From: a virus
Taxonomy: Duplodnaviria; Caudoviricetes
Length of the DNA stretch: 64,000 nucleotides
Virus record (IMG/VR): IMGVR_UViG_3300037067_009128
Span: 1-64,000 of that record
Reading direction: 5' to 3' (one strand)
Part shown: positions 37,103-62,301 of the stretch, one piece after another
Numbering within the stretch: position 1 is the first letter of the stretch
Layout: each line of letters starts with the position of its first letter
The notes under the pieces: generated by a model
The model's input: only the letters and a program-made list of their open reading frames with translations
Databases searched by the model: none
What the model was told of the DNA's origin: nothing
Position numbers and translations under genes: made by a program

Positions 37103-39835
37103 TTAATTACCCCACCTTTCTTTGAATACTTCAAATTCGGAATCAATTTTAACTTTTATTATATTAGAAATATCTATCTTTCTTTCAATACCATCGGGAT
37201 GAATTGAGAATGTTTTAGATGTCATTAGTTTAGGCGTAATTTCTTTTATCAATTCTAATTCATGTTCAGGTGATTCACCGTCAGCTTCATCATGTACTGT
37301 TATCAGGGGCCAACTTTCAAGATTATTATCCCTACAATAATCATATATTTTGATAAAACCCCATTGAGCAATATCGCTTGCTGTACCTTGTATTTGAGCG
37401 TTAATTCCGGCTCTTACAGCTTCTTCTCTAAAATATTTTTTATCACTAAATGCATCTGGTAGAATTCTACGTCTTCCAAATTTAGAATCTATCCAACCAT
37501 TACAAAGAATATGTTCTTTCATCTCAAGTTGATATTCTTTAGTTCTTTCAAATTCTGACCAAAACCATTCAGAATGTCTTTGTGCATCTTGCATTGTTAT
37601 TTTAGGTTCATCCCTTTCTAATTTCTCATTTACCTTTTCTACCTTAGTCTGATCACTCCCCAGATACATCCCTCCAAAATTACATAATTTAGTTAATTTT
37701 CTGTTTCTTTTCATTTGAAAATCAGTAGGATCATATTCAAGTTCTTTACCATTATAAAATACTTCTTTACAACCTCTCCAATGGATATCAATATTATTAT
37801 CTATATAATAAAGCATTATGGGGTCTTGTGCATAATCTGCCATGATTCTCATTTCAACTTGACTTTCATCACAACTCCAGAATCTCCAACCAGGTCTTGC
37901 TGTAAATACTCCACGTATGTTAGCAGTTTTAGTTTTTTTAGGCATATTTTGCAAATTAGGCCTTGAAGACAACCTTCCACTGACTGCTCCATGTAAGAGA
38001 TAACTCGTATGAACAAAACCATCTGGGTCCATTCTTGAATGCATTTTCTTACCTCTAAGGTAAGTAGAAATCATTTTTTGTTTTTTCTTATAATCTAATA
38101 ATGCAGCTATTAAATCTAATTCGCCTTTAAATTTATCTGGATGTTTTTCAAATTCTTCTCGTAGTCTTTTAATATGGTCTTGATCAGTACTTGCATAATC
38201 TGATGTTTGAGGTTGACCTTTTTCTTTTGTTTTAAATATAGGCCAACCAAGCTCAACAAACAATAATTCTTGTAATTGAACTGGGGAATTGAGATTGATT
38301 GTTCTTTGAAAAGTACTAAAGAACTCTTCTTCAATCTCTCTTAATTCTTTAGTATACTCATTAGCAATCTTTTCAGCATATTCTCTATCAAAGTATACCC
38401 CTCTTAATTCTGCCATTGTATAAACATGTTGTAATGGCATATAAAGATTATCCAATAAGAATTTGTTATCCAAGTAACAATTCTTTGCTCCTTGATAATT
38501 CTTTTTCTCTTCTTCAATCTCAGTAGCTAAATCTTCCCATAATCTAAGTGTTGCATCAGTATCTTTAGGGCCATATATACTCAATGTTGAAAGAGGAATG
38601 TCTGCATAATTTTCTACATCTTTTTTATCTTTTGTTAATAATCCATAAACAGATTGTTTATAACCTCTTAAATCAGGATATCTAACATCTGAGTTATATT
38701 CCAAACTATTTGGTACATTTTCATTTAATAGATAACTCATCAACATTGTGTCAGCAACAATATTATTAGGATGTATATCTAATTGCTTTATTAAGAACTG
38801 ATTATCGAATTTAACATTTTGATTACATTTCTCAATTTCTGGATTTTCTAACAATGTTTTCATTCTACCAACAACATATTCAGTAGCTGTAGGTCCTAAC
38901 CAGAAATAAAATTCATCTTTATCAAATGTTCCTAAATTATTAGTTTGTAAATATGATTCCCATTCTTTTTTTCTTTCATCATCAAAATCTTTTCCTTTAA
39001 CCCATAGAGGTAAGTAAATACCTGTATTTCTTTCACAAGAAAAACTAATACCTATGATTATATCCTCTCTCCATTCTTCAAAGATTACTTTTTTACCAAG
39101 TCTTTTCCTTTCAATTATTTCTTTCATCATTTGATATTTATTACCAGTAGTCTCAATATCATATACAAGTTTTTTACCTTGCATCAGATAATCAATGACA
39201 CCGTCAAATTCTTCAATAGTTTCTATTAAAATATAATCATTTTCTTTTTTAATATTTGTAGGTGAGTAATTTTTAATAAACTCTAAATCTTGTTCGAAAG
39301 GTAATATTAATTCTTCATTATTATATAAAGCACCTGGATGATAAGTTACAAAAATATCACAAGGATATTTTGTCATTGAATGTACTTGATTTCTTAATGA
39401 ATCTATTTTATCTTTTTTACCAAACATAGCTTCTACAACAGTTTTACCAAGAAGTATTATCTTTGGAGGTTTTACTTTAAAAAGTTCATTTGTTTTTAAG
39501 ATAGACTGAAGTATTAACTCAAGATTATCTGAACAACATTTAATATCTTTTTTATTAGGTGTCTTGTTTTCAGAATTTCTACAGAGTGTGATTGCTGTAT
39601 AAAAGAAATTAGTAATTCCTGTTTTTTCAATCTTTTCAAGAAATGTTTTTGAATCTCTTCCCCCAAGAATATTCTGATAATCTGTTCCTTTATCAGAAAT
39701 AAAAATATATTCTATGTATTTATCCCATTGACCTTCTGACACATCTTTAAACTTACCTTCATATATAAATTCTGGATTATAACAACTACAATTTATACAA
39801 TTATTATAAACTAGGTCAATCCCAAGTTTATCCAT
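37103..39835 (-). CDS. polA: Family A DNA polymerase with N-terminal UDG-like (Fe-S) domain and 3'-5' exonuclease
   Basis: CxxC..LCR..TP..CC..ILLG..TYHP (UDG family 4-like); YDIETTG, NVKFD, YGPKD exonuclease; SGRLSS.PNLQN, DESQVEMR, KLCNFGGMY, VHDE. Confidence 0.92.
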   Translation of the reverse strand: MDKLGIDLVYNNCINCSCYNPEFIYEGKFKDVSEGQWDKYIEYIFISDKGTDYQNILGGRDSKTFLEKIEKTGITNFFYTAITLCRNSENKTPNKKDIKCCSDNLELILQSILKTNELFKVKPPKIILLGKTVVEAMFGKKDKIDSLRNQVHSMTKYPCDIFVTYHPGALYNNEELILPFEQDLEFIKNYSPTNIKKENDYILIETIEEFDGVIDYLMQGKKLVYDIETTGNKYQMMKEIIERKRLGKKVIFEEWREDIIIGISFSCERNTGIYLPLWVKGKDFDDERKKEWESYLQTNNLGTFDKDEFYFWLGPTATEYVVGRMKTLLENPEIEKCNQNVKFDNQFLIKQLDIHPNNIVADTMLMSYLLNENVPNSLEYNSDVRYPDLRGYKQSVYGLLTKDKKDVENYADIPLSTLSIYGPKDTDATLRLWEDLATEIEEEKKNYQGAKNCYLDNKFLLDNLYMPLQHVYTMAELRGVYFDREYAEKIANEYTKELREIEEEFFSTFQRTINLNSPVQLQELLFVELGWPIFKTKEKGQPQTSDYASTDQDHIKRLREEFEKHPDKFKGELDLIAALLDYKKKQKMISTYLRGKKMHSRMDPDGFVHTSYLLHGAVSGRLSSRPNLQNMPKKTKTANIRGVFTARPGWRFWSCDESQVEMRIMADYAQDPIMLYYIDNNIDIHWRGCKEVFYNGKELEYDPTDFQMKRNRKLTKLCNFGGMYLGSDQTKVEKVNEKLERDEPKITMQDAQRHSEWFWSEFERTKEYQLEMKEHILCNGWIDSKFGRRRILPDAFSDKKYFREEAVRAGINAQIQGTASDIAQWGFIKIYDYCRDNNLESWPLITVHDEADGESPEHELELIKEITPKLMTSKTFSIHPDGIERKIDISNIIKVKIDSEFEVFKERWGN

Positions 39836-39893: not shown

Positions 39894-40580
39894 TTATAGA
39901 GGTAGTCCGAAATTTATTGCTTTTCTTTGTTTGAATAGTTCTCCATCTTTGTCAAAAAATCTCATATTCTTTTGATGAAGATCATCTCCTGGAACACCAA
40001 GATGAGCATGGAAATCATGTCTAATTAAACAAGTTCCAAAAAATGTTTGTTTTTTAAGTTTATTTGCTACTTCCATAAATTCATTGTCACACCAAAACCC
40101 TTTGTATTCTGGGTAATAAATGTAACCAAATCTATCAAAGTATTTTCTACCTATAATCGGTAATGTATTAAGATCAGTTCTGAATCCATCAAAGTACCAC
40201 AAAACTCCATCAGTATCAGGATAAAAATGTTGCATATCACTTCTAATTTGCTCATCATAGCCAATGTATACTGGAGTCATATCATCAGATGCTAATAAAA
40301 CAATATCAAAATCTTTATAAAAAACTCCAGCATTCATAGCATTAATCTTACAAGTATTATTATAAAATTGGATATCACAATAACTACCAAATTCACTAAT
40401 ATATCTAATTTTATTAATGATATCACTGTTATTCATTGTTTTATCATCAATATCACAAATAATATGAAATGATGTGTTTTTGTGGTCTTGGATTAAATCT
40501 TGATATTTTTGTAACATTTTTAAGAATTTTTCAGGTCTTTCTCTTGTGGGGAATTGAATTAAGACTTTTAATTTTGACAT
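39894..40580 (-). CDS. GT-A fold glycosyltransferase (GT2-like)
   Basis: FPTRERP, KINAMN, ASDDM, FWCDNEF, IRH. Confidence 0.8.
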   Translation of the reverse strand: MSKLKVLIQFPTRERPEKFLKMLQKYQDLIQDHKNTSFHIICDIDDKTMNNSDIINKIRYISEFGSYCDIQFYNNTCKINAMNAGVFYKDFDIVLLASDDMTPVYIGYDEQIRSDMQHFYPDTDGVLWYFDGFRTDLNTLPIIGRKYFDRFGYIYYPEYKGFWCDNEFMEVANKLKKQTFFGTCLIRHDFHAHLGVPGDDLHQKNMRFFDKDGELFKQRKAINFGLPL

Positions 40581-41425
40581 TGTAATACCTCTTCTAATAA
40601 AAATTTCATTCTTTTATAATAAGTATGTTGTTTTGAAAAATTATAACCATTATTAGCTACCTCATATATATAATCAAGATGATTCTTACAATAATTAAGT
40701 TTTTCCATAAGATCATTTTTTGATTCATAACTTAAATAATCTATTTCATCTCTGAATCCTAATTCTTGATATTGTTTATCATAATTAGTTAATAAAACAG
40801 TACTGCATCCCAATGTTTCAAAACTTCTATAATTAATATCATTTGAGATATTTTTATTAAAATGAATACGATAAGAATTTATAGCTCTTACCATGTCTTT
40901 TCCTAATACCCATATATCTTTTTTTAATAAATATTTCGACTCTATTACATTGAACCATTCTTCTCTATTTAATACACTACCACAAAATCCTATAAAATAC
41001 CCTTTGATATTCATAGGATAAATCAATTCATCATCAAAACAATTTGGAAACCAAATTGTACGTATAGAATTCGAAGTTATACAATAATTTTTATTAGCTT
41101 GTAACATTGTGTGATATTTTCCACGTTTAAATTCTTGATTATAAATTTCAATTCCTCTCACATGTGCATCAATACACCATAATAATTTAATAGGTTTGGA
41201 ATATTGACTTAAATCTGGTACCCATCCAGAGTCGTAATTTTCAAGATTTATAATAACATCATAACTATTAAAATTGGGAATCTGGTTAAAATTATGATGA
41301 CCTTTACCCCAAACATCACAACTTTGTCCTAATTTAATTAATGCTCTTTGTGCAGAGAAACATTCTCTAAATTCCCTATTTGAATCATGAATCCCATTCT
41401 CTTGAATAATTAAAAATTTAAGCAT
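40568..41425 (-). CDS. GT-B glycosyltransferase (Glyco_trans_1_2 / CgeB-like)
   Basis: IGFCGS, INYRSFETLGC..LLT, HTYYKRM; probable start ATG 41425 after GAGG. Confidence 0.8.
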   Translation of the reverse strand: MLKFLIIQENGIHDSNREFRECFSAQRALIKLGQSCDVWGKGHHNFNQIPNFNSYDVIINLENYDSGWVPDLSQYSKPIKLLWCIDAHVRGIEIYNQEFKRGKYHTMLQANKNYCITSNSIRTIWFPNCFDDELIYPMNIKGYFIGFCGSVLNREEWFNVIESKYLLKKDIWVLGKDMVRAINSYRIHFNKNISNDINYRSFETLGCSTVLLTNYDKQYQELGFRDEIDYLSYESKNDLMEKLNYCKNHLDYIYEVANNGYNFSKQHTYYKRMKFLLEEVLQCQN

Positions 41426-41927
41426 ATTGGTCCTCTGTATAAGCTGAAAAAGTATTCTCATTTTCATTTTTATGAATAGCAATATCATACCCATAACGTG
41501 CAAACATTTCAGGATTTAAAACTGAAATATGTTCTTCAAATGGGTTACCGTCTAGCGAACCTTGTGGATGTTCTCCTATAGGCATTTGATATATTACTAT
41601 TTTTTTAGCTTTTCTTTCAATGTCACCATTGATATTTAAAAAATCAAACCAAGTAATATGTTCTGGACCATGTAACCAAATAACAGCATCATAGTTAAAT
41701 TCTATCAGATCAATATTTTTAACATCTATATGGTGTACAGTTTTCACAAATTTAAAGATATCTCTACAATTATCTCCCCAAACTTCTAATACAGAAAATT
41801 CTCCCCCAATACTTTCTATATAATTTTGAATACTTCTGTCAGAATCGTGTCTGTACCCAATATTGAGTACAGACTTTACCTCCAATTCTTTAAATTTATC
41901 AATAACGAACTTTATTTGTTCAAGCAT
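41418..41927 (-). CDS. Small class I SAM-methyltransferase-fold protein
   Basis: SVLNIG, VLEVW, YDAVIWLHGPEHI, GNPFEEHIS. Confidence 0.6.
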   Translation of the reverse strand: MLEQIKFVIDKFKELEVKSVLNIGYRHDSDRSIQNYIESIGGEFSVLEVWGDNCRDIFKFVKTVHHIDVKNIDLIEFNYDAVIWLHGPEHITWFDFLNINGDIERKAKKIVIYQMPIGEHPQGSLDGNPFEEHISVLNPEMFARYGYDIAIHKNENENTFSAYTEDQYA

Positions 41928-41946
41928 TTTACTCCTAAGATTTTTT

Positions 41947-42945
41947 TTAATTTTTAACTATAGCACTTTTACCAAAATATTGAAAGTTTAATGTTTTATT
42001 GTCATATATCACATTATCATAAACAAACTTTGAAGGGAAAACTGTAATATTAAAACAAGGAGCTCCAAGATACCCAATTCTCATATGTGTTTGAGGAGAA
42101 TCTTTATACCCCTCAAAATAATCAAAATCGATCTTAATATCATAACTATAATCATTGATTTCTAATCCTAATCCACAACCTTCAATCATTCCTCTAAAAC
42201 TTGATCCTTGAGTTTTAGTTGCTGAAATACCGATAGGACATTTTTCAATGTCAAGATTAGCTCTCATTGCATTAAGCATATGTCCTTTAAAACCTATTTT
42301 ACAATCTTTTATAAATGCTTTCACATTAGATACTTGTCCTTTTAAATCCATTCCAGTTTCTGCTCCTGAAATGTATATATTTTCAAAATTAAATCTATGA
42401 TACCCATTAGGACGATTAACGGGATTAGATTTGATACCCGTAAAAACAGCTTTTGAATCACTTTTTATAATAGCAAAATTTCTAATATTCCAGTATTCTC
42501 CAGCATTCTTATCATATTTTATAGGATCTGTATTAGGTATAACTAAATCAGTAGCAATATGTTCTATTACTGGACTTCCATCAGTTATCCCTTTAACTTG
42601 CAATACAGTTCCATAATCCCAACCAGCATCTTCACCTATTATAGGAACTTCTGTTTTTATACCACCTTTAATTATTGGGTATTTACCATTAAACAATTTT
42701 ACTATTTGATGATCTTCTCTTGCTTTATAGCAAGCATCTTGTATTAAACTAGAACAATCACCATTCCTTGGTCTAACCCAGTATACAGAGTCTTCTGGAA
42801 TATCTGGAATACTCTCTTTCAATTCTTGTAGTGATTTTGCAATGTTAGTAAAATCAGTTTCATAACCTTGAACTTTTTCTTGAAATTCTTTTATAGAATT
42901 GTCTATTTGTTCAAACTTATTATTGAGATCTTCTCCTAGTGACAT
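41947..42945 (-). CDS. Coiled-coil plus parallel beta-helix (pectate-lyase-like) protein
   Basis: DCSSLIQDAC..VKLFNGKY..IIGE..GTVL start; repeating CKIG/CPIG/CGLG rungs. Confidence 0.6.
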   Translation of the reverse strand: MSLGEDLNNKFEQIDNSIKEFQEKVQGYETDFTNIAKSLQELKESIPDIPEDSVYWVRPRNGDCSSLIQDACYKAREDHQIVKLFNGKYPIIKGGIKTEVPIIGEDAGWDYGTVLQVKGITDGSPVIEHIATDLVIPNTDPIKYDKNAGEYWNIRNFAIIKSDSKAVFTGIKSNPVNRPNGYHRFNFENIYISGAETGMDLKGQVSNVKAFIKDCKIGFKGHMLNAMRANLDIEKCPIGISATKTQGSSFRGMIEGCGLGLEINDYSYDIKIDFDYFEGYKDSPQTHMRIGYLGAPCFNITVFPSKFVYDNVIYDNKTLNFQYFGKSAIVKN

Positions 42946-42956
42946 AATATTTCCCT

Positions 42957-43670
42957 TTATAATAATTTATAATTAAGTACTTGTCTATAATTCTTTACAT
43001 CGTTACAAAATTTTGCATATAACTCCTTCCAATTTGGTTTTTGAATATCAAATATCCAGTGTAATGTTTTTATATGTGGATCATTTAAATTAATTTTATT
43101 AACATCATGGTAAGATTTTTGAAATGTAGATATTATTGGTTTAATATTGCCATAAACTAACTTATCATAATTATAAGCATTATATTCTTTATCACAAGTA
43201 TGAATCCAATTAAATTCAAATGCATTTAAAGCATCTAATGCGTCTTGTGTATAAGTATTAAAAGCAGGAATAAAATGGTCTCTATTGAATTTATTGACTT
43301 TAGACATTATATTAAAACTATGCTCAATTCTATGTTCTATTTCATGTTGAGATAAATCTTCAAATTCACCTCCATTAGGCCAAGTATTGATTATATCATC
43401 CCATCCAAATGCATGATCAAATTTATGATTAAATCCATGCATAACAATTTGTCCAACTTTAACTATTGAATTAAATAACTCTATATCTAATTCGTCTATT
43501 AATAATGGACTTACTCCTAGTAAATAAGGAACTTGATTTGATTCAAATATACTTAAAACTTCTGTAATTCTTTCTCTACACCAATTATGATTATAACCAG
43601 GATACCCATAAGGATAATCATCAATTCTAATAACCTGTATTCCTTCACGAACAAAATTATTTACTTCCAT
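42957..43670 (-). CDS. Polysaccharide deacetylase (DUF2334-like)
   Basis: IRIDDYP, LGVSP, MHGFNH, FIPAFN, TLHW. Confidence 0.75.
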   Translation of the reverse strand: MEVNNFVREGIQVIRIDDYPYGYPGYNHNWCRERITEVLSIFESNQVPYLLGVSPLLIDELDIELFNSIVKVGQIVMHGFNHKFDHAFGWDDIINTWPNGGEFEDLSQHEIEHRIEHSFNIMSKVNKFNRDHFIPAFNTYTQDALDALNAFEFNWIHTCDKEYNAYNYDKLVYGNIKPIISTFQKSYHDVNKINLNDPHIKTLHWIFDIQKPNWKELYAKFCNDVKNYRQVLNYKLL

Positions 43671-43678
43671 TTAATTCC

Positions 43679-44233
43679 TTATAAAAATTTAAAAAATTGC
43701 ATTATATGTAATAGTCCACCACGTTCGCCATTTATGTCATAAGATTGATATCTATCTTCTTCATATATAAGTTTAGATGAAAATTCTCCAAAATCTATAA
43801 TTTTAAGCTTTCTATCTGTCATGTTATATAATATATTACTTTCATTCAAATCACCATGAACTATATTTCTTGAAAGTAAATCAATAATCATCTTACTTAG
43901 TTCAGAAATTATCCATAATTTATCTATAAGAGACAATACATATCCACAACTTTCTAAAGAAATATAACTATCTGGTATTAATTCTGTAAATATTTCAATA
44001 TGGTTATAAAAATCAGAGGCTTCTAAGAATTTAGGTACATAATCAATACCTTTTAATTCTTTTAAAAAATCTATTTCTTTATAACCTCTTAAACGATCAT
44101 TATCTACTTTACAAAATGCTTGTCTTTTTTCAGATTTATAATATTTACGATCTTTATTTATAGTTGTTGTATTAGGTATAAACTCAATAAATAAAGGATC
44201 ATTTTTAACACTTATCATTGATTTTTTCTCCAT
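43679..44233 (-). CDS. Protein-kinase-like fold kinase (Kdo/RIO/WbdD-type)
   Basis: FCK, EIDFLKEL, VPK, HGDLNESNIL, IIDFG. Confidence 0.8.
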   Translation of the reverse strand: MEKKSMISVKNDPLFIEFIPNTTTINKDRKYYKSEKRQAFCKVDNDRLRGYKEIDFLKELKGIDYVPKFLEASDFYNHIEIFTELIPDSYISLESCGYVLSLIDKLWIISELSKMIIDLLSRNIVHGDLNESNILYNMTDRKLKIIDFGEFSSKLIYEEDRYQSYDINGERGGLLHIMQFFKFL

Positions 44234-44886
44234 AATCTTAATACATTGTGGTATACACCATTTAATTCATGTACATTAGGTCTATTATTAGCTATAATCT
44301 GAGTATAATCTTTTAAAATTTTAGAATTCCATTGTTCATAATGATCATGCATACTTATATAAGGTACTTCATATTCTGCAGCAAGACCTAATTCAAAATT
44401 CATACAATCACTTGAATGGTCTGAATCATGAAAAAACAAATCAACTTGGTCATCTTTATAGATTTCATCAAAAACATCATATAAAACATTAAAGGTATAA
44501 TCTTTGATAAGTGTCCATCTATCTTTTAAAACTTTAAAAACTCTTTCTCCAGGTTCACCTATTGTTAGTTTATGAGACCCATCTGTAGAATTTTTACCAG
44601 AATCTATTGTTATAAGTTTACCTTTATTATTACGAAACATTCCATATAAAATTGCTTGAGTAGAAGCTCCATTTTGACATCCAGTTTCAATTACTATTTT
44701 AGGTTTTATTAATCTTGTTAATACATATAAAGGAAGATTATAAAATGAAAAAGAATCTCCAGGTCTTAACTCTTTACAAAATAATACTCCTTTATCTATT
44801 TCTTCATTGATAATATCAGAAGCTCCCAATTTTATAACTTCTTCAATAAAATCAGGCTGTAAATAATCTTTTATAATATCTTCCAT
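44215..44886 (-). CDS. Class I SAM-dependent methyltransferase (Methyltransf_24-like)
   Basis: KPKIVIETGCQNGAST, GKLITID, DLFFHDSDHS, MHD. Confidence 0.8.
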   Translation of the reverse strand: MEDIIKDYLQPDFIEEVIKLGASDIINEEIDKGVLFCKELRPGDSFSFYNLPLYVLTRLIKPKIVIETGCQNGASTQAILYGMFRNNKGKLITIDSGKNSTDGSHKLTIGEPGERVFKVLKDRWTLIKDYTFNVLYDVFDEIYKDDQVDLFFHDSDHSSDCMNFELGLAAEYEVPYISMHDHYEQWNSKILKDYTQIIANNRPNVHELNGVYHNVLRLWRKNQ

Positions 44887-45008
44887 TATACCCTCTTTTT
44901 AATTAATACTATTAAAATAATAATAAAAAGTTAATGTAATTATGATACCGAATGCAATCAGTATAAGTCCTCTTAAAAACCAATTATCTTCCATTATATC
45001 CTCTTTTT
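44877..45008. repeat. 24-bp direct repeat (44877-44900 and 44985-45008) flanking a mini-gene
   Basis: tatcttccattata(c/t)cctcttttt, 23/24 identical; contains RBS and start codon on the minus strand. Confidence 0.85.
44899..44994 (-). CDS. 31-aa single-TM protein (not in ORF track)
   Basis: MEDNWFLRGLILIAFGIIITLTFYYYFNSIN; GAGG RBS; TAATG coupling. Confidence 0.6.
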   Translation of the reverse strand: MEDNWFLRGLILIAFGIIITLTFYYYFNSIN

Positions 45009-47057
45009 TGAATATTCTTCATTAGTAAAACAAATCCATAAAGGTCTTCCAATTCTATCTGGGGCATTTATTCCTGGATCAGTGTTTTCTAGACGTTCAA
45101 CTTTATAAAATACATCTTTAAGTAAAGATTCATAAAATACATCTTTTCCATTTCTAATATCATCTGAATGTCCTTCAACTATTACAACACCATCCGTTAT
45201 TTCATTAATTTCTTTTAATATTAATTTTTGATTATTAAAATTTTCAATAATTGACAATAATAATACTACATTAAATCTAACATTATGAAAAACTTCTTTT
45301 GTCGATATATGATTAATATCTACATTCATAAAATTATATCTTAATTGAGGATATAATTCTTTTGACAATTCAATATAATCTTTATCAGAATCTATTCCGT
45401 AAACATTTTTGAATCCTAAAATATATTGATTAACAAAACAACCAAGATTACTTCCTATATCAATTAAGATATTATTAGGGATATTATAAGTATTGATTAC
45501 ATTATTAATTAAATTAATTCTACTTTGTGAATCTCTTAACCCTTCAAATACTATCCCTTCTATTTTAATTGTTTGATAAGGCATATAAAACTTCTTATTT
45601 TTGTATTCAAAAGTTTTGTTATCTACCCATCTTCCTTGTAATTTAGAAAGTATGTTTATTATCTTATTATCTATCATAACTAAAGCATCCTTTAATGGTT
45701 GAATAAAATTCTTTTCTCTATTGTTATTTTCATCAAAAATATCACCTACAAACTCAAAGTCTCTCCTTTCTGTAGGAAAGGGTTTTGGATTAGAGTTGTA
45801 AAAATCAAAATCACTATGTTCAATAGTTTCATCTTTAATAGATGCATATAAATTAGAAAGTAAATCCTGGTCAGCTTGTTTATAATCTTCCTTCTTTGCA
45901 TTTATAAAAAATTTTATATATTTATACAAAGCTCCATTTTTAACTCCCCACATCCCGGCCATTATCAAAGCCGTATGCCAAGGGTGGTCTCTCATTATAT
46001 GGAAATCTTTATCAGATTTTAACCATTCATCAACAGCAGCTTTTTCTCTTAAAGAAAGTCTTGAATCTGTGTCTCTAAAAATAACAATTTCTGCTTCATG
46101 TTTAAATGCAGCATTAAATCTCCATATTGTTGATGACCAATTTCCTAATTCTTCCATTTCAATAACATCAACATTATCAAAAGATTTTAACTCATCAATT
46201 ACATGTTTATAAATTTCTCCAACATAAAATAAACATCTCCAATCGGGGTATATCTCTTTAGCTAATTTAGCATTTTCGATAGCACCTTGTGTGTATTTTT
46301 TATCTATTCCCCACAAAGAGAAACTTATTACTTTTTCTTTGTATGCTATATAGTTAAGATTTAAATATTTATTATATTGTAAATAATCAATAATTCGTTT
46401 TTTTAGAAAAAAGAGAGCACCTGTTGGATTTAATGCCCAATCACCATTTTCATGAAGATTGCAATGCATTCCTCCATAACCGTAATGATCAACATAACTA
46501 GTTCTACTAATAATAACTTTATTATTATATAATTCTCCTACTCGCCAATCAAATCCCCCGTGTTTAGCTATTAACTTTCCACCATGTGTATTTGAGTCAT
46601 CAAGCACTCTTTTTACCATTTCTCTGTCAAGAAATATAGAAATTCCGGGAAGATACTCTCTTATAACTTCAAATTGTTCAGTATCATCAACTGTGAAATG
46701 AGTATGACAATTACTGTTATATAAACTTATTGGAACGTTCCACTTATCATGTAATAAGATTGCCATGTCTTCCCAGTTTGTATCATGGAAAGCATCATTA
46801 TCAGTTAAATAAAGAAACTCATATTCTGAATTATAAAAATCTTTAAAATGTTGTAATCTTTGTTCTTCAATTCCTTTATTTTTACTAATACTTACATGAT
46901 CAGAAAATTGTTTTAACCAAGTTTCATCATATTCAGTAGATCCATCATCATAAATAAAGATATCACTTTCATTTGATACTTGTTTTAATTGATTCAAACA
47001 AAGTTCTGTAATTTTCTTTCTATTGTAAGTTGTTACTGCAATATAAATCTTTTTCAA
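44994..47057 (-). CDS. Three-domain fusion: GT2 + second GT-A-like domain + SAM methyltransferase
   Basis: AVTTYNR..YDDGS..TDND; VISFSLWG..WRF..FRDTDSRL..HIMRDHPWH; YQTI..RD..R..LIDIGSNLG. Confidence 0.8.
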   Translation of the reverse strand: MKKIYIAVTTYNRKKITELCLNQLKQVSNESDIFIYDDGSTEYDETWLKQFSDHVSISKNKGIEEQRLQHFKDFYNSEYEFLYLTDNDAFHDTNWEDMAILLHDKWNVPISLYNSNCHTHFTVDDTEQFEVIREYLPGISIFLDREMVKRVLDDSNTHGGKLIAKHGGFDWRVGELYNNKVIISRTSYVDHYGYGGMHCNLHENGDWALNPTGALFFLKKRIIDYLQYNKYLNLNYIAYKEKVISFSLWGIDKKYTQGAIENAKLAKEIYPDWRCLFYVGEIYKHVIDELKSFDNVDVIEMEELGNWSSTIWRFNAAFKHEAEIVIFRDTDSRLSLREKAAVDEWLKSDKDFHIMRDHPWHTALIMAGMWGVKNGALYKYIKFFINAKKEDYKQADQDLLSNLYASIKDETIEHSDFDFYNSNPKPFPTERRDFEFVGDIFDENNNREKNFIQPLKDALVMIDNKIINILSKLQGRWVDNKTFEYKNKKFYMPYQTIKIEGIVFEGLRDSQSRINLINNVINTYNIPNNILIDIGSNLGCFVNQYILGFKNVYGIDSDKDYIELSKELYPQLRYNFMNVDINHISTKEVFHNVRFNVVLLLSIIENFNNQKLILKEINEITDGVVIVEGHSDDIRNGKDVFYESLLKDVFYKVERLENTDPGINAPDRIGRPLWICFTNEEYSKKRI

Positions 47058-47240: not shown

Positions 47241-47672
47241 TTATATTTGAATCATGGGAACTTGGACTTCCATCATAAGCTTATCTCTTGCTTCATCTTT
47301 TATATATTTATTCAAATAAAATATTTTCTTAACATTAAATGTTATTAAAAGTTTATAACAATTAATACATGGTGGATGAGTTATATAACAAGTTAAAGAA
47401 TCATATTTTCTTTGAAGATTAGAAACAGCTGCAACTTCACCATGAGCACATCTTATACAATGATTATCATGCATTAAACAACCAACATCATCACAATGTT
47501 GAGTTTTTGAGGCAGATGAATTATAACCTATAGCTGCTATTCGATTTTTATCATCAACAAGAACACAACCTACTTTTAATCTAATACAAGTTGCACGTTG
47601 TGAAGCTAATGTTGCTATTCCCATAAATAATTCTTCTCTAGAAATACGTTTATTAACTTTCTTTTTAGGCAT
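47241..47672 (-). CDS. dCMP deaminase (ComEB-like)
   Basis: RATCIRLKVGCVL, IGYN, AHGE, PCINC. Confidence 0.9.
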   Translation of the reverse strand: MPKKKVNKRISREELFMGIATLASQRATCIRLKVGCVLVDDKNRIAAIGYNSSASKTQHCDDVGCLMHDNHCIRCAHGEVAAVSNLQRKYDSLTCYITHPPCINCYKLLITFNVKKIFYLNKYIKDEARDKLMMEVQVPMIQI

Positions 47673-49281: not shown

Positions 49282-49398
49282 TTAATAAATATGGATAAAA
49301 GAAACTAACCATTTTATAAATTCATACCCAAGTATAGAAATAATTGCTATTACAATTATAATTATGATTAAGTCGATGAGTTTAAATTCCGGAAACAT
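49282..49398 (-). CDS. 38-aa single-TM protein (not in ORF track)
   Basis: MFPEFKLIDLIIIIIVIAIISILGYEFIKWLVSFIHIY; AAGGAG RBS; TAATG coupling. Confidence 0.65.
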   Translation of the reverse strand: MFPEFKLIDLIIIIIVIAIISILGYEFIKWLVSFIHIY

Positions 49399-49808
49399 TA
49401 TTTCTCCTTATTTTTAGATTTACAATGTATACCATCATCAGTAGGCCCAAAATGAGCATTTGAGTGATTTGATACTTCAAATTCTATCATACAAAGATTT
49501 GCAACATCTACCAAATATTCTAAATTTCCTGTTTTTTGAAAATTTTCAAGTCTTTCAATACATGAACCTATTCTATCCCATTTCATTCCTTGATTTATAC
49601 GCCAATCATTATATCTTAATGTTCCCATAATCACACGATTAGTCATTAACTCAATAAATCTTTTACTCATTAGAGTTTCTTTTAAAACTGGAGCATCAGG
49701 CATAAACTCTCTTTTCTCTTCTTCTTGTTCACATTTCCATAACCATAAATTATGTAAAAAGAATGCCTCATTACCCAAAGGTTTCTTTAAGCAATTTTTA
49801 TTTTCCAT
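49398..49808 (-). CDS. Putative MazG-like/DUF5664-like dNTP diphosphohydrolase
   Basis: MGTLRY..W, GNLEYLVDVANLCMIEF, all-alpha NTP-PPase-like pattern. Confidence 0.45.
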   Translation of the reverse strand: MENKNCLKKPLGNEAFFLHNLWLWKCEQEEEKREFMPDAPVLKETLMSKRFIELMTNRVIMGTLRYNDWRINQGMKWDRIGSCIERLENFQKTGNLEYLVDVANLCMIEFEVSNHSNAHFGPTDDGIHCKSKNKEK

Positions 49809-49820: not shown

Positions 49821-50822
49821 TTATTCAGAAAGTAATTGATGTTTGTCTACTGATTGTAAGTATTCTTTGGCTTGTTTTAATATATATTCTCCTACTTGAG
49901 GAACAATACTTTTACCTATTTGATCTGCTACTCCATTTTCACTCCCAAAGAATTGAAAATCAAGTGGATACCCCATTAAGCAAGCATTTTCTCTATTAGT
50001 AAGAGTTCTATTTTCTGTTGGATGAATATATCTTGTAGAACTTCCCATTATTACTGGAGCAGGTTTATCAAGTGCAAGTCTTCTTTGTTGAGAACCGGAA
50101 TACATTGATTCTCCAGTTCTTAATCTTGACATCTTTTCAATTTGTTCATCAGAATGTTTTGGGAATTTATCATTATATAAAACACAACCTTCACTCCTAA
50201 CTTTTTCTAACATTTCAAATGCAGATCTGATAGTTAATTGACCTCGTTTGTCTTCTAAAGGTGGTTTTAAAAAGAATCTGAATGGGTATAAACTACCAAT
50301 AACAAATAATCTATCTCGTACTTGAGCAATTCCAACTTCAGTAGGGTTAATTCTGTGTTCTTCAATATAATAATCAGGAAGTTCAATTTCTTTCTTACTT
50401 ATCATATGTTTTAAAACTGTTCCACCTGCAGTGGCTTCAAATCTTAAATAATTTCTGACACTTGGTAAGTTTTCTAATATAAATATTATAGGTTTTCTAT
50501 CTATAATTTCTTGTACAAATTGAACATATTCAAATTCATCAAAGTCTTTAGTTTGAACATTAACAACATTTTTACTACTTCTACCTGCAGAACTAATTTC
50601 ACCACAAGATGGACTTCCCCAAACAATATCAGCTTTCATATTGTAGAACGCTTTCAATTGTTGAGACCACATAGTATCTGGGAAATTAAAACGATGTGTC
50701 TTAATATTAAAGTATTTTCTAGGTTCAATTGCCCATAAAGTTTTTAAACCTACATTTCTTGCTGCTAATAAAGAGGCTCCCGCTCCGCCAAAAATTACTC
50801 CAAATGTTATGATCTTTTCCAT
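49821..50822 (-). CDS. C5-cytosine DNA methyltransferase-fold enzyme A (motif X GKS)
   Basis: FGGAG, GSPSC, LENL, QVRDR, RTLTNRENACLMGYP, QIGKSI. Confidence 0.85.
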   Translation of the reverse strand: MEKIITFGVIFGGAGASLLAARNVGLKTLWAIEPRKYFNIKTHRFNFPDTMWSQQLKAFYNMKADIVWGSPSCGEISSAGRSSKNVVNVQTKDFDEFEYVQFVQEIIDRKPIIFILENLPSVRNYLRFEATAGGTVLKHMISKKEIELPDYYIEEHRINPTEVGIAQVRDRLFVIGSLYPFRFFLKPPLEDKRGQLTIRSAFEMLEKVRSEGCVLYNDKFPKHSDEQIEKMSRLRTGESMYSGSQQRRLALDKPAPVIMGSSTRYIHPTENRTLTNRENACLMGYPLDFQFFGSENGVADQIGKSIVPQVGEYILKQAKEYLQSVDKHQLLSE

Positions 50823-51136
50823 TATTTATAATCGTATTCTAATGAGTTGTGTAAAAAGTTAATTTCAGGAATAGATAATTCATAATTAATATTTGAACTG
50901 ATATAAAATTCTATGACTTCAAGAAATGCAATCGATTGTTCTATCAATAAAATTTCTTCTTTGATTTTATTTCTTACTTCTTCTTTTAATTCTTTACTTA
51001 AATTTCCTTTTTCAGTATCAATTATAAGATTTTCCTTTCTATCAATACTTGCTTTTAATTTTCCTATTTTTGAAGTTGAAAGAGATTGAATTTGACTACC
51101 AGAAATATTGATTTTTAATGATTCAAACATAAACAC
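50822..51136 (-). CDS. Hypothetical coiled-coil protein between the two MTase paralogues
   Basis: Coupled ORF, GAGG RBS. Confidence 0.5.
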   Translation of the reverse strand: MFMFESLKINISGSQIQSLSTSKIGKLKASIDRKENLIIDTEKGNLSKELKEEVRNKIKEEILLIEQSIAFLEVIEFYISSNINYELSIPEINFLHNSLEYDYK

Positions 51137-52089
51137 CTCATTATTTGTTTTCCTAATTCTTCAGCAACTGGAGGAGAAATACTTTTGCCTATTAAATCTA
51201 AAGAATCATTTTCTTTTCCTATAAATTCAAAATCTAAAGGAAATCCTTGAAAAGTTGCACATTCTCTTACATTTAAGACTCTTGGTTCAAATGGATGTAC
51301 ATATCTTGTACAATGAGAAGTAATTGTAGGGCATACTTTTTGAGGGTTTAATTTCCTATTATTCTGACCACCATAAAACGATTCACCATATTTTAAATTT
51401 TTGAAACCTTCCATTCTTTCTTTTGAATGGTGTGGATTTTCATCATTATATAATGGAGGTTTAAAATTTAAATCTCTTATTTCTCTTTCATTATCCAAAG
51501 TTTCTAATACTTCATTTACACTTTTAACATGGTAGTTAATAGGCATCTTAAAAGTAAAATTATATTTCTTCTTATATAAAATTACGTAAATCCTGTTTCT
51601 TTGTTGTGGAACTCCAAAAAAATAACTATTGAGATTTAAAAATTCAGAATTGTATTCTCCATATTCAATAAATGCTTCAGTAGGTAAATGGATTACTCTA
51701 TCTTTTTGAAACGAAAAGAATTTTTCTATTTTTGTTAGATATTCAATAATTATAAACTCAGCATTTCTTGATAATAATTTTCTTAAAGATTTAATAAAAT
51801 CAAAATCATCAATTGTAAAGGTTTTCAATTCACTACGATCTTCTCGTTTCATTCCTAATGATGATAGCTGTGCACAAGACGGAGAAGAAATCAAAACATC
51901 AATTTTCATATTATCAAATTCATCAAAATCATCTGAGATATTTATGTTAGGAAAATGGTATTCCCAAGTTTTAATATTTTTATAGAAAAAATCTCTATCA
52001 TCTAATATAAATGAAGGTTCAAATCCAGCTTGTTTCAATCCAAGAATATTACCTATACCAGAAGAAATTCCACCACAAGTTTTATTCAT
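51115..52089 (-). CDS. C5-cytosine DNA methyltransferase-fold enzyme B (motif X GKS)
   Basis: SSGIG, SSPSC, IEYL, GVPQQRNR, RVLNVRECATFQGFP, LIGKSI. Confidence 0.8.
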   Translation of the reverse strand: MNKTCGGISSGIGNILGLKQAGFEPSFILDDRDFFYKNIKTWEYHFPNINISDDFDEFDNMKIDVLISSPSCAQLSSLGMKREDRSELKTFTIDDFDFIKSLRKLLSRNAEFIIIEYLTKIEKFFSFQKDRVIHLPTEAFIEYGEYNSEFLNLNSYFFGVPQQRNRIYVILYKKKYNFTFKMPINYHVKSVNEVLETLDNEREIRDLNFKPPLYNDENPHHSKERMEGFKNLKYGESFYGGQNNRKLNPQKVCPTITSHCTRYVHPFEPRVLNVRECATFQGFPLDFEFIGKENDSLDLIGKSISPPVAEELGKQIMRCLCLNH

Positions 52090-52661
52090 TTAATTCCTCT
52101 CATACATTCAGTTTTATCAATTTTAGCTTGAGTTAAAACCTTTTTAACATAATCTTGTGTTAAAACAGTTTTAGTATCTATTTTAATTATAGGTGCTTCA
52201 TTCATAATTAAATAATCAACTGTTTTCATATAAATCTTTTGAATTTCTAATATTTCTTCAAATGTAAATAATCTTTCACCTCTAGTTTCAAATCTTGATT
52301 TTAAAACATTTTCATCTGAACAATAAGTAATAAAAACTTGAACATCTTTATTTAATTCTTTATTGAAAAGGTATTTATAAACATAATCAATATCTGTATC
52401 TCTATTAAAGAATTTAGAATAAACCAAAGATGAAATTAATCCTCTATCTAGTACAAAATCATATTGTTTAGCTAAAGGAAATATTGAATCAAAGAAAAAT
52501 CTTGTGATCACTTCAATTTGATTCTCATTTAATTTCTCACGTTTATCTAATTTTAAGATATCTAATCTTTTTTTAATAACAGGGATACATTTAATATCAG
52601 AAATCATTTTTGCTAAAGTTGATTTCCCCGATAAATCAACTCCGTCTACTATTATTAACAT
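52086..52661 (-). CDS. dNMP (thymidylate-type) kinase
   Basis: IIVDGVDLSGKST, LDRGLISSLVY, RFETRGE. Confidence 0.85.
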   Translation of the reverse strand: MLIIVDGVDLSGKSTLAKMISDIKCIPVIKKRLDILKLDKREKLNENQIEVITRFFFDSIFPLAKQYDFVLDRGLISSLVYSKFFNRDTDIDYVYKYLFNKELNKDVQVFITYCSDENVLKSRFETRGERLFTFEEILEIQKIYMKTVDYLIMNEAPIIKIDTKTVLTQDYVKKVLTQAKIDKTECMRGIK

Positions 52662-53099: not shown

Positions 53100-54035
53100 T
53101 TATAATTTAATAACATTAAAATCTAATAAATTTTTTGAGTTTATCGACCAGTCATCTAAAAGTTTATCCTTTTTTAGGTATGCATGTAGTATTGCAAAAT
53201 AATAACTTTTAGCAAAATTACTACTAAATTCTTTATCATTTATACCTAGTTCACTAACTTCATAATTAGGTACTTCGCACAAATCAATTAGGTCATCTAT
53301 CAACTCAACATCTTTTTTAGTAAATGATCCATCATCTTCAAAAAATATCCAATCTTGTTTTATTAGTTTTGTGATAGTATTCTTTACTGAACCGGTAACA
53401 TCTCTTTTCTTTTGATAGTATATTTCAGGTACAAAATGAAAATAACTACCTAATTTTAAATTAGTTTCTGAAGCAACATATCTTTGTAATAATGTATGGT
53501 GAAAAACATCATAAGGTAATAAATTCATAACATCATTAACTCTCATATTAACATACACATCAAGTTCACCATTTCTGTTCATAAACTGTATTGTTAGTGT
53601 ACAAGGTCTTCTTGGATAAAGATCTCTAGTCATAAGATATTTATCATCCCATATATTTAGAATACATTCAGAATATCCTTTTTTAAGACGTTTTATAATA
53701 ACAGGTAATTGAGAATTATAAACATCTCCATAACTATAACAAAATCCTTCAAAATCTTCTTCTTCATTTTTTAATTTTTTTGCCCAATTAGGTCTAAATT
53801 GATAAGCTGTTCCTGGATTATTTCTACTTTCTTTTTGAGAAAGACGATTAACTCCTTCTACAAAACACCAAGACCAATTCTTTCTAATAGATATTAAAGA
53901 ATTACAAGGATTTGTTAATTCAAAAAATACTCCTGGGTAACTCTTAAATTTTCCTACAATTTGTCCTGTTGATTCAAGAGTTTCTAAGATTTTTAAATAT
54001 ATATTATAAAAATTATTTTCTTTAAGAATTAACAT
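53100..54035 (-). CDS. Thymidylate synthase homologue, dCMP-modifying type (hydroxymethylase-like), divergent
   Basis: RPCTLTIQF, MRVND, PYDV (Asp at the TS Asn position), LGSYFH; probable start ATG 54035. Confidence 0.75.
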   Translation of the reverse strand: MLILKENNFYNIYLKILETLESTGQIVGKFKSYPGVFFELTNPCNSLISIRKNWSWCFVEGVNRLSQKESRNNPGTAYQFRPNWAKKLKNEEEDFEGFCYSYGDVYNSQLPVIIKRLKKGYSECILNIWDDKYLMTRDLYPRRPCTLTIQFMNRNGELDVYVNMRVNDVMNLLPYDVFHHTLLQRYVASETNLKLGSYFHFVPEIYYQKKRDVTGSVKNTITKLIKQDWIFFEDDGSFTKKDVELIDDLIDLCEVPNYEVSELGINDKEFSSNFAKSYYFAILHAYLKKDKLLDDWSINSKNLLDFNVIKL

Positions 54036-55071
54036 AATCAACCCAATTTGGATACATTTTTTGAAATTCTTCATGTAAAGGAATCATCAATTCCCTCATT
54101 TGAGGATGTGCAGCATTAGATGTTCTCATATAAAAAATCCATTGCCATTCTTTCAGATTAGTAGTAACAACAATTTCCGTTTTTATATGGTGACTCAATT
54201 TACCTCTAGCTTGTTGAGGTTGAAGACCATAATTTATAGCATTTAAATATCTTGATTCATTAATTGCACAATCAAAGAAGAATTCTTTATCAATATCAGA
54301 ACTAAACTCAAAATTTCTTTTTTCACCTTCATGATATTCATGTTCAGATATGTTAACCCAAGGAGGTATTATATAAGTTAATTGATTTCCAAATTTATCT
54401 TTACTATAATTACAATATCTTGTACTTTCTTGTGAGAATGCAATATTGTTACGATGTCTTACAAGTTCATGAGTAACTCCTCTATCACAAACAAAATTAA
54501 CAGAAACACATTCATGAATTAACTTCTCATCAAATGTTAAAAGTTCAGTATTGTTGAGTTCAAAGAATAAGGTTTGATTATCTTTTTCATATGTATGTTT
54601 AATTACCGGAAAAGGTTCTTTGTTTATTAAATCTTTAAAAAATAATGAGTATTTATTAATTAAATAATAATACAATTCTAAAAACATAAAATTATCTTCT
54701 ATGTCATTTACTTGTTTAATATAATTAAAAACATCAATAATTAAATTTCTAAATGCTCTTACATTTCCTGAGACAAAACATCTATGATAACTATGGGCTT
54801 TATCTCTTGAGAGTTTTAAATATTTTGTTGACATTCCATCATTGAATGTAATAAACCATTTATAGAATGCTGAATTAGTTATTGCAAAAATAAGATTATG
54901 ATGTTCAAGAACTGAATAATGATTTCTTTCTTTTATTTTACTTATAAACTTAATATAACTATCATCAGTAATTAAACATTCAGATTGATAACAAACCCTT
55001 CCGCAATTTTCTATTTTTTTATAAGGGTTATCTTCTTTTATAATTTCAAAATAAGGTTTTATTAATCTCAT
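54022..55071 (-). CDS. thyX: Flavin-dependent thymidylate synthase
   Basis: GRVCY, HYSVLEH, DRGVTHELVRHR..FSQESTRY, AHPQMR. Confidence 0.92.
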   Translation of the reverse strand: MRLIKPYFEIIKEDNPYKKIENCGRVCYQSECLITDDSYIKFISKIKERNHYSVLEHHNLIFAITNSAFYKWFITFNDGMSTKYLKLSRDKAHSYHRCFVSGNVRAFRNLIIDVFNYIKQVNDIEDNFMFLELYYYLINKYSLFFKDLINKEPFPVIKHTYEKDNQTLFFELNNTELLTFDEKLIHECVSVNFVCDRGVTHELVRHRNNIAFSQESTRYCNYSKDKFGNQLTYIIPPWVNISEHEYHEGEKRNFEFSSDIDKEFFFDCAINESRYLNAINYGLQPQQARGKLSHHIKTEIVVTTNLKEWQWIFYMRTSNAAHPQMRELMIPLHEEFQKMYPNWVDYVNS

Positions 55072-55320: not shown

Positions 55321-55956
55321 TTAATAATTACTTTCTTGTCGAAATTGATTTACTCTTGATTTTTGATAATACATATTAAGAATTTCAATAGGTTTCATTT
55401 TTAAAAATAAGATGTTAAGATATTTAATAAAAGCTTTTGATAAAAACGATTGATACTTGACAATATCTGTTGAAACATGAGTACATTTCCATGGTTTTAT
55501 TTTTAAACAATTCATAGTTTTACCAAGGATTTTTATAAAATCTCTCAATTCTATATCAAGAGTTTCATCATCTAATAATTGAGCATCAAGATATTTATCA
55601 TAAGGTTTAAAATCACAAAAAACTTCAGCATCTATACTTGATAATAAACAAAGTTCAACAATAAAATGTAAACCGTCCATCATTTCTTCTTTATAGTGTA
55701 CTTCATCATGAAAATCATCTAAAGCTTCTAAAGCCTCACCAATTTCTTCAACAATTCTCCAAGCAAAATTCTTCAATAAATTCTGATCTTTACCATTATC
55801 TATATTACAAAATAAATTCTCTGGATAATAAAATCCATTTTTAACTTCAATAGGTGCATATTTTATCGCTAATTCATGTTGACGTTTAAAGATCAGAGGA
55901 ATTAGATCGATGGTATCTTTTTCAGAAAATTCTGTGGTATAATCATTAATATTCAT
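55321..55956 (-). CDS. Dimeric all-alpha dUTPase/dCTPase-like dNTP pyrophosphatase
   Basis: EEIGEALE, EEMMDGLHF, KPWK, YYQKSRVNQFRQESNY. Confidence 0.8.
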   Translation of the reverse strand: MNINDYTTEFSEKDTIDLIPLIFKRQHELAIKYAPIEVKNGFYYPENLFCNIDNGKDQNLLKNFAWRIVEEIGEALEALDDFHDEVHYKEEMMDGLHFIVELCLLSSIDAEVFCDFKPYDKYLDAQLLDDETLDIELRDFIKILGKTMNCLKIKPWKCTHVSTDIVKYQSFLSKAFIKYLNILFLKMKPIEILNMYYQKSRVNQFRQESNY

Positions 55957-59966: not shown

Positions 59967-60590
59967 TTAATCCTTAAATAAGGCATCTAGGATTTCTTTA
60001 TCAAGTTTATTATTTGACACTGTTTTGATTATTTTAACTAATTTTGCAATACCATTTCTACGTTTAGCTCCTAATATTTTAGCAATAGTTGTTCTTGAAG
60101 CATCGGGGAATGCTAATCTAAGTTGAAAAGTTTTTCCAGCTCTTTTACTTACACTAAAAATTATATCATGTAATCTGTGTATATCTTCTATAAATCTTTC
60201 ATCAATTTTAATTTCACCACTGTCGAAAACATATTCTTCAAGATTCTCAATTTCTAAATTAGGATCCATTCTTGAATTACAAGTATTTTTTCCTTCTTTA
60301 TCTGTTTTATTTATCTCTCTTATTACTCCTTGTTTAACTATGTGGTATACCCAACCTAAAGCATTGTCCCATCTATTCTGGTCGAATTTGAGTATAGCTT
60401 TCCAGAATGATTCAAATGCTATAATTTCAATATCACTTTCTTCAAATACTCCATGTTTATCATGAAAGTTTTTCAATCCAAAATATTTTTTTATCTTTTT
60501 AAAATAAAACTGTAATTCACAATCACTTGGGGATTTTTTATAATTCTCAATAAAAAGTAATAAATCTTCATTAGTTATTAGGTTTTTCAT
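59967..60590 (-). CDS. Phage sigma70-family factor
   Basis: SDIEIIAFESFWKAILKFD (region 2); SRTTIAKILG (region 4 HTH). Confidence 0.65.
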   Translation of the reverse strand: MKNLITNEDLLLFIENYKKSPSDCELQFYFKKIKKYFGLKNFHDKHGVFEESDIEIIAFESFWKAILKFDQNRWDNALGWVYHIVKQGVIREINKTDKEGKNTCNSRMDPNLEIENLEEYVFDSGEIKIDERFIEDIHRLHDIIFSVSKRAGKTFQLRLAFPDASRTTIAKILGAKRRNGIAKLVKIIKTVSNNKLDKEILDALFKD

Positions 60591-62301
60591 CTTTCTTTAC
60601 CTTTTTAAACTCAACTTGTCTCATTTGAGTATTGATAATTTTTAAACATTGTGGATTGATATTTAATGCAACGTTTACTTGAGGCCCGTTACTTTGCTTT
60701 GCTATGTTAACTTCTATTGCATAATTTAATAATGTAGTATCATAAAAATTTGGATAATGTAATAACATTACTATTCTAGCAAATTCTTCATAAGCTCCAG
60801 AATCTTTTAATTCCCATAATGATGGACGAGGATCTTTTTTCTTTTCACTATTTCTGTTAATTTGTACTAATAAACAATAATGTTGTTTAAACTCTTTTGC
60901 CATTGTTAAATACCTAACAAGAGTTGCACTTACTTTTTGTGCTTTAAATTCTGGAGAATCACCTACTCCTTTTAATCTATCAAATAAATCAAAGAATACA
61001 ACTTTTACTCCCTTTTTAGCTAACATCCTCAATTCGTTTCTCATTTGATTTTCAGATTTATTTGTACCTTCAAGTAAATGGTAATTCCATTTAGATTGAA
61101 TCTCCCAAGCATTTTTTAACTTTTCTAAACGGTTATCAGATTTTAACCAAGAATGACTACCAACAATTTCTTTTATAGGAATACCAGAAATGATTGAATC
61201 AATACGGTCCGATTCTACTTCCATAGTTTGTTCAAGAGCATAACTTGCAACACCAGTTCCGAGGTTACACATATTAGTAATTAGATTCCCTTTAACAAGT
61301 GAATTATGAACTAATATATTATTAGCAATGAAATTTGAATTTTTTAATAATGTTAAATCATATGTATCATCAATATCAGTTAAATCTATAGATTTAATAG
61401 GTAAAAATATAAAATCAGATTCTATTAATGCTATTAAATCTTCATTAATACTTAAATCTTTTAAAGATTTCCAACCTGTTTTAGTTAAAAATAAATGATT
61501 ATTAGATGCTTCTATTTGATATCCTATCTTAGATAAAACTATTTTATACAATTGTTTTTTTCCAGAATCAATCTTATCAATTACTCTATCTAATTCAAGT
61601 TTATCATCATTGTTTTTAGTCCAAATTAAATCTCCTACTTTAATATTTCTCAATTCAATTAATCCATGATTTGTATTGATTAATGAATTCCCTTTTAAAC
61701 ATTTCCCGTTACTTGGACGGCCAGCAACAATTGATATTTCACCTTCTTCAAATTTATAAGTAAGATTATCATCAATCTCTTTAATTCCACAATAAATTGA
61801 AGTTTTTGATTTCCTATCTTCTAAAGTCTTTATCCTGAAATCAGTATAAGTATCACCCGTAATATATTTTTCATCTAAAATTGATGATGAATTCTCTAAT
61901 TTGAAATCTTTTATTAATTGTTGGTAAGGATCTGGGTCATTTTTTAATTTTTTGATAAGAGATTGGCATTCATCTATTGTTTTTCTTCTATCATGCCTAT
62001 CAATAAGAAGTTCAATAAGACTGTCAAGTTTTTCTGGTATGAAATATTTATCTTCAATTGATATAATCTCATCTAAAGATAATACATCCCCTATTAGTGA
62101 TAATTCACTTTTAACAGTATAAGCATTAACATCTAAATTCTTTTCAACTAAATTAGAAATTGCAATAAAACAAGTTCTAAAATCAGGTTGACTAAAATGA
62201 TCATCTGTTAATTGAGAGAGTATTTTTTGTCTAGCTTCATCAAAAGATATACTTAAACCTATAACTAATTGCTCATTTATTCTATCATTACTTATATTCA
62301 A
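60571..62301 (-). CDS. dnaB: Replicative DnaB-like helicase containing a mini-intein
   Basis: DnaB N-domain; AGRPSNGK|S; ALEQ; QINR..RPSLWELKDSGAYEE; IAKQSNGP. Confidence 0.9.
   Translation of the reverse strand: MNISNDRINEQLVIGLSISFDEARQKILSQLTDDHFSQPDFRTCFIAISNLVEKNLDVNAYTVKSELSLIGDVLSLDEIISIEDKYFIPEKLDSLIELLIDRHDRRKTIDECQSLIKKLKNDPDPYQQLIKDFKLENSSSILDEKYITGDTYTDFRIKTLEDRKSKTSIYCGIKEIDDNLTYKFEEGEISIVAGRPSNGKCLKGNSLINTNHGLIELRNIKVGDLIWTKNNDDKLELDRVIDKIDSGKKQLYKIVLSKIGYQIEASNNHLFLTKTGWKSLKDLSINEDLIALIESDFIFLPIKSIDLTDIDDTYDLTLLKNSNFIANNILVHNSLVKGNLITNMCNLGTGVASYALEQTMEVESDRIDSIISGIPIKEIVGSHSWLKSDNRLEKLKNAWEIQSKWNYHLLEGTNKSENQMRNELRMLAKKGVKVVFFDLFDRLKGVGDSPEFKAQKVSATLVRYLTMAKEFKQHYCLLVQINRNSEKKKDPRPSLWELKDSGAYEEFARIVMLLHYPNFYDTTLLNYAIEVNIAKQSNGPQVNVALNINPQCLKIINTQMRQVEFKKVKKDEKPNN
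61303..61701 (-). mobile_element. 133-aa mini-intein in DnaB Walker A (no homing endonuclease)
   Basis: Starts CLKGNSLI, block B ASNNHLF, ends YDL..NFIANNILVHN followed by Ser. Confidence 0.92.

Follow-up and report, generated by a model that had tools for sequence, protein, structure and literature searches.

Lys-Type Variants of the C5-Methyltransferase Fold beside Thymidylate Synthase Homologs in an Uncultured Phage from a Groundwater Metagenome

A natural carboxymethyltransferase, CmoX (Arg350) of phage S-B43, was published in 2025 together with CmoA and CmoY (PMC12783734). CmoX uses carboxy-SAM (Cx-SAM) made by the phage CmoA and does not accept SAM, CmoY adds glycine, and CmoX also works in Escherichia coli on host CmoA alone (PMC12783734). 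The published census, which took SPPC and Arg350 as its criteria, counted 4257 CmoA for 5615 CmoX, most on the same contig (PMC12783734). For thymidylate synthase (TS) homologs, Asp177 (ThyA numbering) denotes dCMP as substrate, an acidic residue 143 denotes hydroxymethyl, and Asn169 denotes hydroxy (PMC13326640), and modified cytosine is indicated in phages that have both a deaminase and an Asp-type TS (bioRxiv 2024.12.05.627091). Here, we report two phage enzymes, A and B, which are a conserved variant of the C5-methyltransferase (C5-MTase) fold within a TS-linked cytosine pathway not described before and which probably help to build a cytosine modification.

The source record was an uncultured phage of 117,325 bp (G+C content, 27%; 95% complete by CheckV) from a groundwater metagenome, and the window, meaning the whole stretch of DNA that was analyzed, was its first 64 kb. 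In the replication arm, genes A and B are flanked by primase/dCMP deaminase genes on one side and by those for a kinase, TS1, ThyX, and a dUTPase_2 pyrophosphatase on the other. Features are listed by window position unless stated otherwise.

39894-47057: glycan-type island (glycosyltransferases, class I methyltransferase domains, kinase, DUF2334)
47241..47672, minus strand: dCMP-deaminase-family protein, conserved with the TS module
49821..50822, minus strand: Lys-type C5-MTase-fold enzyme A (333 aa; PF00145, E 1e-25)
49911..49913, minus strand: Lys304 codon of A (AAA), at the HhaI Asn304/CmoX Arg350 position
50822..51136, minus strand: 104-aa ORF, directly after B in phages with both A and B (no Pfam or PHROG match)
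51115..52089, minus strand: Lys-type C5-MTase-fold enzyme B (324 aa; PF00145, E 3e-32)
51184..51186, minus strand: Lys302 codon of B (AAA on this strand)
52086..52661, minus strand: P-loop dNMP-kinase-like protein (PF02223, phrog_761, and TIGR00041, all weak)
53100..54074, minus strand: TS1, dCMP-type TS homolog (Asp at ThyA 177, Asp 169, Arg 143, His207 lost)
54022..55071, minus strand: ThyX (dTMP supply), absent from three near-complete relatives
55321..55956, minus strand: MazG/dUTPase_2 pyrophosphatase, dCTPase candidate (PF08761; phrog_12184, phrog_173)
Genome 73195-74022 (L001:10195-11022), plus strand, outside the window: TS2, second dCMP-type TS homolog (Arg at ThyA-143)

Elsewhere in the window, a DnaB helicase (60571-62301) carries an intein-like insert, and a family A polymerase (37103-39835) has a Cys-rich N-terminal region, with a UDG-like domain annotated in relatives. 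The glycan-type island was rejected as a pathway partner because relatives do not share it. A small ORF flanking A (49398-49808) had no family match and was not found in relatives; the 104-aa ORF was kept in four relative loci (L004, L008, L013, and L016). In one of these (L004:8616-10008), the B and A genes are separated by an inserted AdoMet decarboxylase-like gene and DUF3326.

Judged by their catalytic Cys, Glu, and QxRxR, A and B are intact C5-MTase-fold enzymes, and the AlphaFold model of A (pLDDT 94) has the C5-MTase fold. Key residues of A are F11, G13, G15, E33-P-R35, C73, E117-N118, Q167, R169, R171, D300, and K304; those of B are D30-D-R32, C72, E116-Y117, and K302, with the motif I Phe lost. 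Both retain the Gly-x-Gly/glycine loop and the motif II acid, and in both the motif I Asp is replaced by Val/Gly, the canonical motif I D-L-F being absent. A sequence-only reading of this stretch had assigned each protein a Lys in place of the motif X Asn, an SPSC catalytic Cys, a motif VI Glu, QxRxR, and a motif II Arg. All five assignments held: the family profile aligns the Lys (AAA codons, K304 and K302) with HhaI Asn304 and with CmoX Arg350, the SPSC Cys (C73/C72), Glu (ENL in A, EYL in B), and QxRxR are present, and the motif II Arg is R35 in A and R32 in B. A contig from an independent 2018 landfill sample was identical over 50874-51504, B's Lys codon included.

The clade containing A and B (SH-aLRT 99) was defined by homolog searches, and its 43 aligned members were compared with 137 aligned non-clade domains. 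The Cys, the motif VI Glu, and the motif VIII QxRxR were invariant in 43/43. Motif X was Lys in 32 members, Arg in 4, Cys in 5, Ala in 1, and Ser in 1, and all seven members without Lys or Arg at that position had Lys at Cys+1; a positive charge near C5 was thus present in all 43. The motif II Arg (Arg35 in A), which replaces the Asp, Glu, or Asn of canonical enzymes, was invariant (43/43), and the motif I Asp that canonical enzymes keep was lost throughout (43/43). Outside the clade, motif X was Asn in 119 of the 137 domains and Lys or Arg in none. The 43-member alignment indicates that the conserved trait is a positive charge near C5 with a reshaped cofactor pocket, not a lone Asn-to-Lys swap. 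Because Lys or Arg occurs in 36/43 members and 0/137 non-clade domains, and because the landfill contig is identical, the Lys is neither chance nor a sequencing error. Some non-clade C5-MTase-like domains (P0037, P0065, and others) had an acidic residue in place of the motif X Asn, either Asp (12 rows) or Glu (3 rows); one 2643-aa protein carries several domains of this kind.

The 80 best loci retrieved from 185,579 prokaryote genomes (best identity, 22 to 33%) included no clade member, no cultured phage with a clade member was found, and the nearest Atlas clusters were viral. As far as sequence comparison can tell, the clade is a virus-only family with a remodelled pocket. A link to the T-hypermodified SP-15/phiLo phages was discarded because the SP-15/phiLo and JC221 matches were canonical Asn enzymes. 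A and B share 33 to 34% identity and fall into separate subfamilies (each SH-aLRT 100), making their duplication old; the similarity in the target recognition region from which a duplication had been proposed is genuine but common to the whole clade. The order B-small ORF-A recurs in four other phage groups, and many relatives have one gene.

All clade loci with enough flank had TS1 and/or TS2, usually with the kinase and deaminase, and a TS neighbor was seen at 1/60 canonical-MTase viral loci. TS1 lay on contigs with a Lys-type enzyme at 11 of 12 loci, the 12th contig ending just after TS2. TS2 was more widespread than TS1, occurring with kinase and MazG in 24 other viral records and in phages CPD4 and Muddy; the 24 records and CPD4, when searched, contained neither TS1 nor a Lys-type enzyme. 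TS2 carriers often have a degenerate third TS-fold gene, which was looked for and not found in this genome; in many relatives its product (L005:6740-7507, L037:2230-3009, and L098:5208-5957) had no Pfam or PHROG match where tested. Lys-type carriers with enough comparable sequence formed one phage lineage, with capsid, tail, and replication genes in common, so the co-occurrence is a core-gene pattern and not independent evidence of coupling. Apart from the genes for TS, kinase, MazG, and deaminase, the lineage showed no conserved donor synthase. Three near-complete relatives (G004, G005, and G006; records of L033, L035, and L037) had neither ThyX nor canonical ThyA, which would fit dTTP supply via deamination of a 5-methyl-dC nucleotide, as in Xp12, or host dTMP; the likeness of the deaminase to the Xp12 enzyme is only weak. 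In G006, the TS2 match is split inside a 694-aa frame, probably by an intein.

Both TS1 and TS2 have Asp177, which predicts dCMP as substrate, and Asp169, but Arg at ThyA-143, a position held by Leu in ThyA, Asn in Xp12 and PaMx74, Asp in T4, SPO1, ViI, and VPE25, and Glu in RB69. They depart from the published signatures of two known activities: that of a T4-type dCMP hydroxymethylase, as Asp177 is present but Arg stands where Asp/Glu143 is required, and that of a 5-hydroxy-dCMP synthase (RB69 gp48 type), as ThyA-169 is Asp, not Asn. Given the failed acidic-143 diagnostic, a hydroxymethylcytosine-phage label would be a guess. TS1 and TS2 grouped with none of the characterized TS types in the tree, and the TS1 fold was closest to MilA.

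Across the whole phage genome, CpG odds were 0.27, and GGCC was 2.3-fold above Markov expectation, whereas GCC/GGC was depleted; the GGCC excess was confined to this genome, relatives being without it. Several C-containing palindromes were still avoided (GAATTC, 0.37; GATC, 0.64). A target-site motif sought by sequence bias gave no signature common to carriers of the Lys-type enzyme.

As a tentative best explanation, we propose that A and B perform post-replicative covalent-C6 chemistry on pre-modified cytosine in a phage modification pathway. The TS homologs would place a C5 substituent on dCMP, and the kinase and phage polymerase would carry the C5-substituted nucleotide into DNA. A and B would then flip the modified base at their recognition sites and attack C6 with the catalytic Cys, after which the group at C5 would be exchanged, extended, or removed; the motif X Lys (or the Lys after Cys) would stabilize an anionic substituent, leaving group, or donor. 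The pathway might serve to shield the phage from host restriction. The basic residues gained beside C5 in both enzyme classes suggest an anionic C5 group at some step, and the retained Gly-x-Gly and motif II acid indicate that A and B probably still use the adenosyl cofactor site. Most likely, A and B work as separate enzymes that differ in site or step. Through a Cys-C6 adduct, canonical C5-MTases can take the hydroxymethyl group off 5hmC and the carboxyl group off 5caC (PMC11347137), which makes a dedicated enzyme for exchange or elaboration of a C5 substituent chemically plausible. This explanation is favored by the charge near C5, with compensation, and the motif II Arg with motif I Asp loss (each 43/43), by the absence of the clade from the best 80 prokaryote loci, by the tie between TS1 and the Lys-type enzyme, by the rarity of TS neighbors at canonical-MTase loci (1/60), by Asp177 in a deaminase context, and by the lack of any other conserved donor synthase in the lineage. 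Against it stand the single lineage of carriers, the persisting palindrome avoidance, and an Arg at ThyA-143 that fits no characterized enzyme compared; moreover, if the TS product were 5-methyl-dCMP and replaced all cytosine, A and B would have no productive reaction at C5. The more specific proposal, that the Arg-143 TS homologs make an undescribed C5-modified cytosine whose substituent the C5-MTase fold exchanges or elaborates on DNA via Cys-C6 rather than by methylation, is possible, though we hold it loosely. We know of no natural enzyme of this exchange kind, and none was met in the literature searched; if A and B act so, they would provide the first natural example of a type of reaction previously observed only as an in vitro side activity.

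The sequence-only reading took A and B for natural enzymes with an anionic cofactor such as Cx-SAM, and we judge its inference of non-standard chemistry near C5 to be right. A CmoX-like activity, turning unmodified C into 5-carboxymethylcytosine with Cx-SAM from host CmoA, is favored by the exact register with CmoX Arg350 and by the Cx-SAM use that a cationic residue at this site confers on engineered M.MpeI and M.CviPI (PMC13288465); host CmoA alone suffices for CmoX in E. coli, and CmoX as sister of the clade was not rejected (p-AU 0.27). We nevertheless regard this as rather unlikely. CmoA, searched with three profiles and the S-B43 CmoA query, was absent from the phage's own genome and 12 relative records (4 at least 90% complete), extending an absence first reported for the window, and the same search recovered S-B43 CmoA at E 2.5e-34 as a positive control. 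A CmoY-type amide ligase was found neither in this genome nor in complete relatives, and the class I methyltransferase domains of the glycan island, once suggested for checking, were not CmoA-like. Published CmoX usually has CmoA on its contig, A and B are 21 to 22% identical to CmoX, which falls outside the SH-aLRT 99 clade, and motif X is Cys, Ala, or Ser in 7/43 members, the cationic residue shifting to Cys+1. The neighborhood points to cytosine modified before replication, and a TS-made C5-substituted cytosine would block the site. Cx-SAM as the specific cofactor therefore lacks support, and because natural carboxymethylation is already published (PMC12783734), the novelty of the claim is lowered; the claim is not of a new kind, and another reading has better support. 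Transfer of a new anionic group onto unmodified C from a non-Cx-SAM adenosyl-type donor (a host metabolite or TS1 product) would suit the changed ligand suggested by the invariant motif II Arg and motif I Asp loss, and TS1, tied to the Lys-type enzyme, has lost His207; with no candidate donor or synthase found in the lineage, it is improbable.

The motif X residue of DNMT3A is Arg, and M.MpeI N374K retains the use of SAM. A and B could likewise be ordinary SAM-dependent enzymes with a tolerated Lys, making 5-methylcytosine on remaining unmodified C, the paralogues being two specificities: catalytic residues, glycine loop, and motif II acid are all kept, CpG is low in this genome, and working methylases do not always have Asn there, M.CviPI having Tyr (PMC13288465). 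This is unlikely, as the whole clade has three coordinated changes fixed in the pocket, CmoX with Arg at the position does not accept SAM, and the genes are core genes next to the TS module; in CPD4, which has no Lys-type enzyme, CpG is as low (0.15), and no carrier-wide motif signature was found. A non-catalytic role for B (or for both proteins), whether as a partner in an A-B heterodimer or as an inactive relic, is very improbable. In B, the motif I Phe is missing and Tyr replaces the motif VI Asn, and B-types accompany A-types in every locus long enough to tell, but 15 B-types at 39 to 53% identity have invariant Cys, Glu, and QxRxR, as well as an invariant motif VI E-Y. The heterodimer proposed earlier gained no support, since single-gene relatives are common and the pair is not required; an A-B complex prediction (score, 0.00) counts neither way.

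If cytosine is pre-modified as we propose, the pathway would add to the known DNA bases and to the reactions that the C5-MTase fold carries out in nature, and it might be used to label or read modified cytosines. If Cx-SAM chemistry applied instead, it would be a second, Lys-based, CmoA-free route missed by the SPPC and Arg census and a natural CxMTase source for methylation sequencing. The Arg-143 TS module is also present in cultured phages, CPD4 and Muddy.

Compared with the T4 hydroxymethylcytosine pathway (gp42, gp1, and gp56) and its RB69 5-hydroxycytosine and Xp12 5-methylcytosine variants (PMC13326640), this module likewise combines a dCMP-type TS homolog, a dNMP kinase, a dUTPase_2 pyrophosphatase, and a deaminase. 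Unlike those systems, the lineage has two or three TS-fold genes with Arg at ThyA-143 and no conserved DNA glycosyltransferase, its conserved DNA-acting enzyme being a C5-MTase fold. With SpCmoX (S-B43, PDB 8YF3; PMC12783734), A and B share a phage C5-MTase fold, a catalytic Cys, and a cationic residue at the HhaI Asn304 position, but they have Lys, not Arg, and SPSC, not SPPC, which places them outside the published CmoX definition (SPPC and Arg350). Their invariant motif II Arg replaces the adenine-stacking Phe of CmoX, and their phage has dCMP-type TS neighbors and no CmoA or CmoY. The engineered CxMTases M.MpeI N374K and M.CviPI Y205K (PMC13288465) have Lys at the same structural position as A and B; being single laboratory substitutions with supplied Cx-SAM, they speak to possibility and not to natural function. 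Canonical C5-MTases (M.HhaI, M.HaeIII, and 3G7U of E. coli prophage CP-933R; PF00145) match A and B in fold, motif order, Cys, Glu, QxRxR, and glycine loop, whereas A and B differ in their motif X Lys for Asn, lost motif I Asp, gained motif II Arg, an Asp four residues before the Lys, and their status as virus-only core genes.
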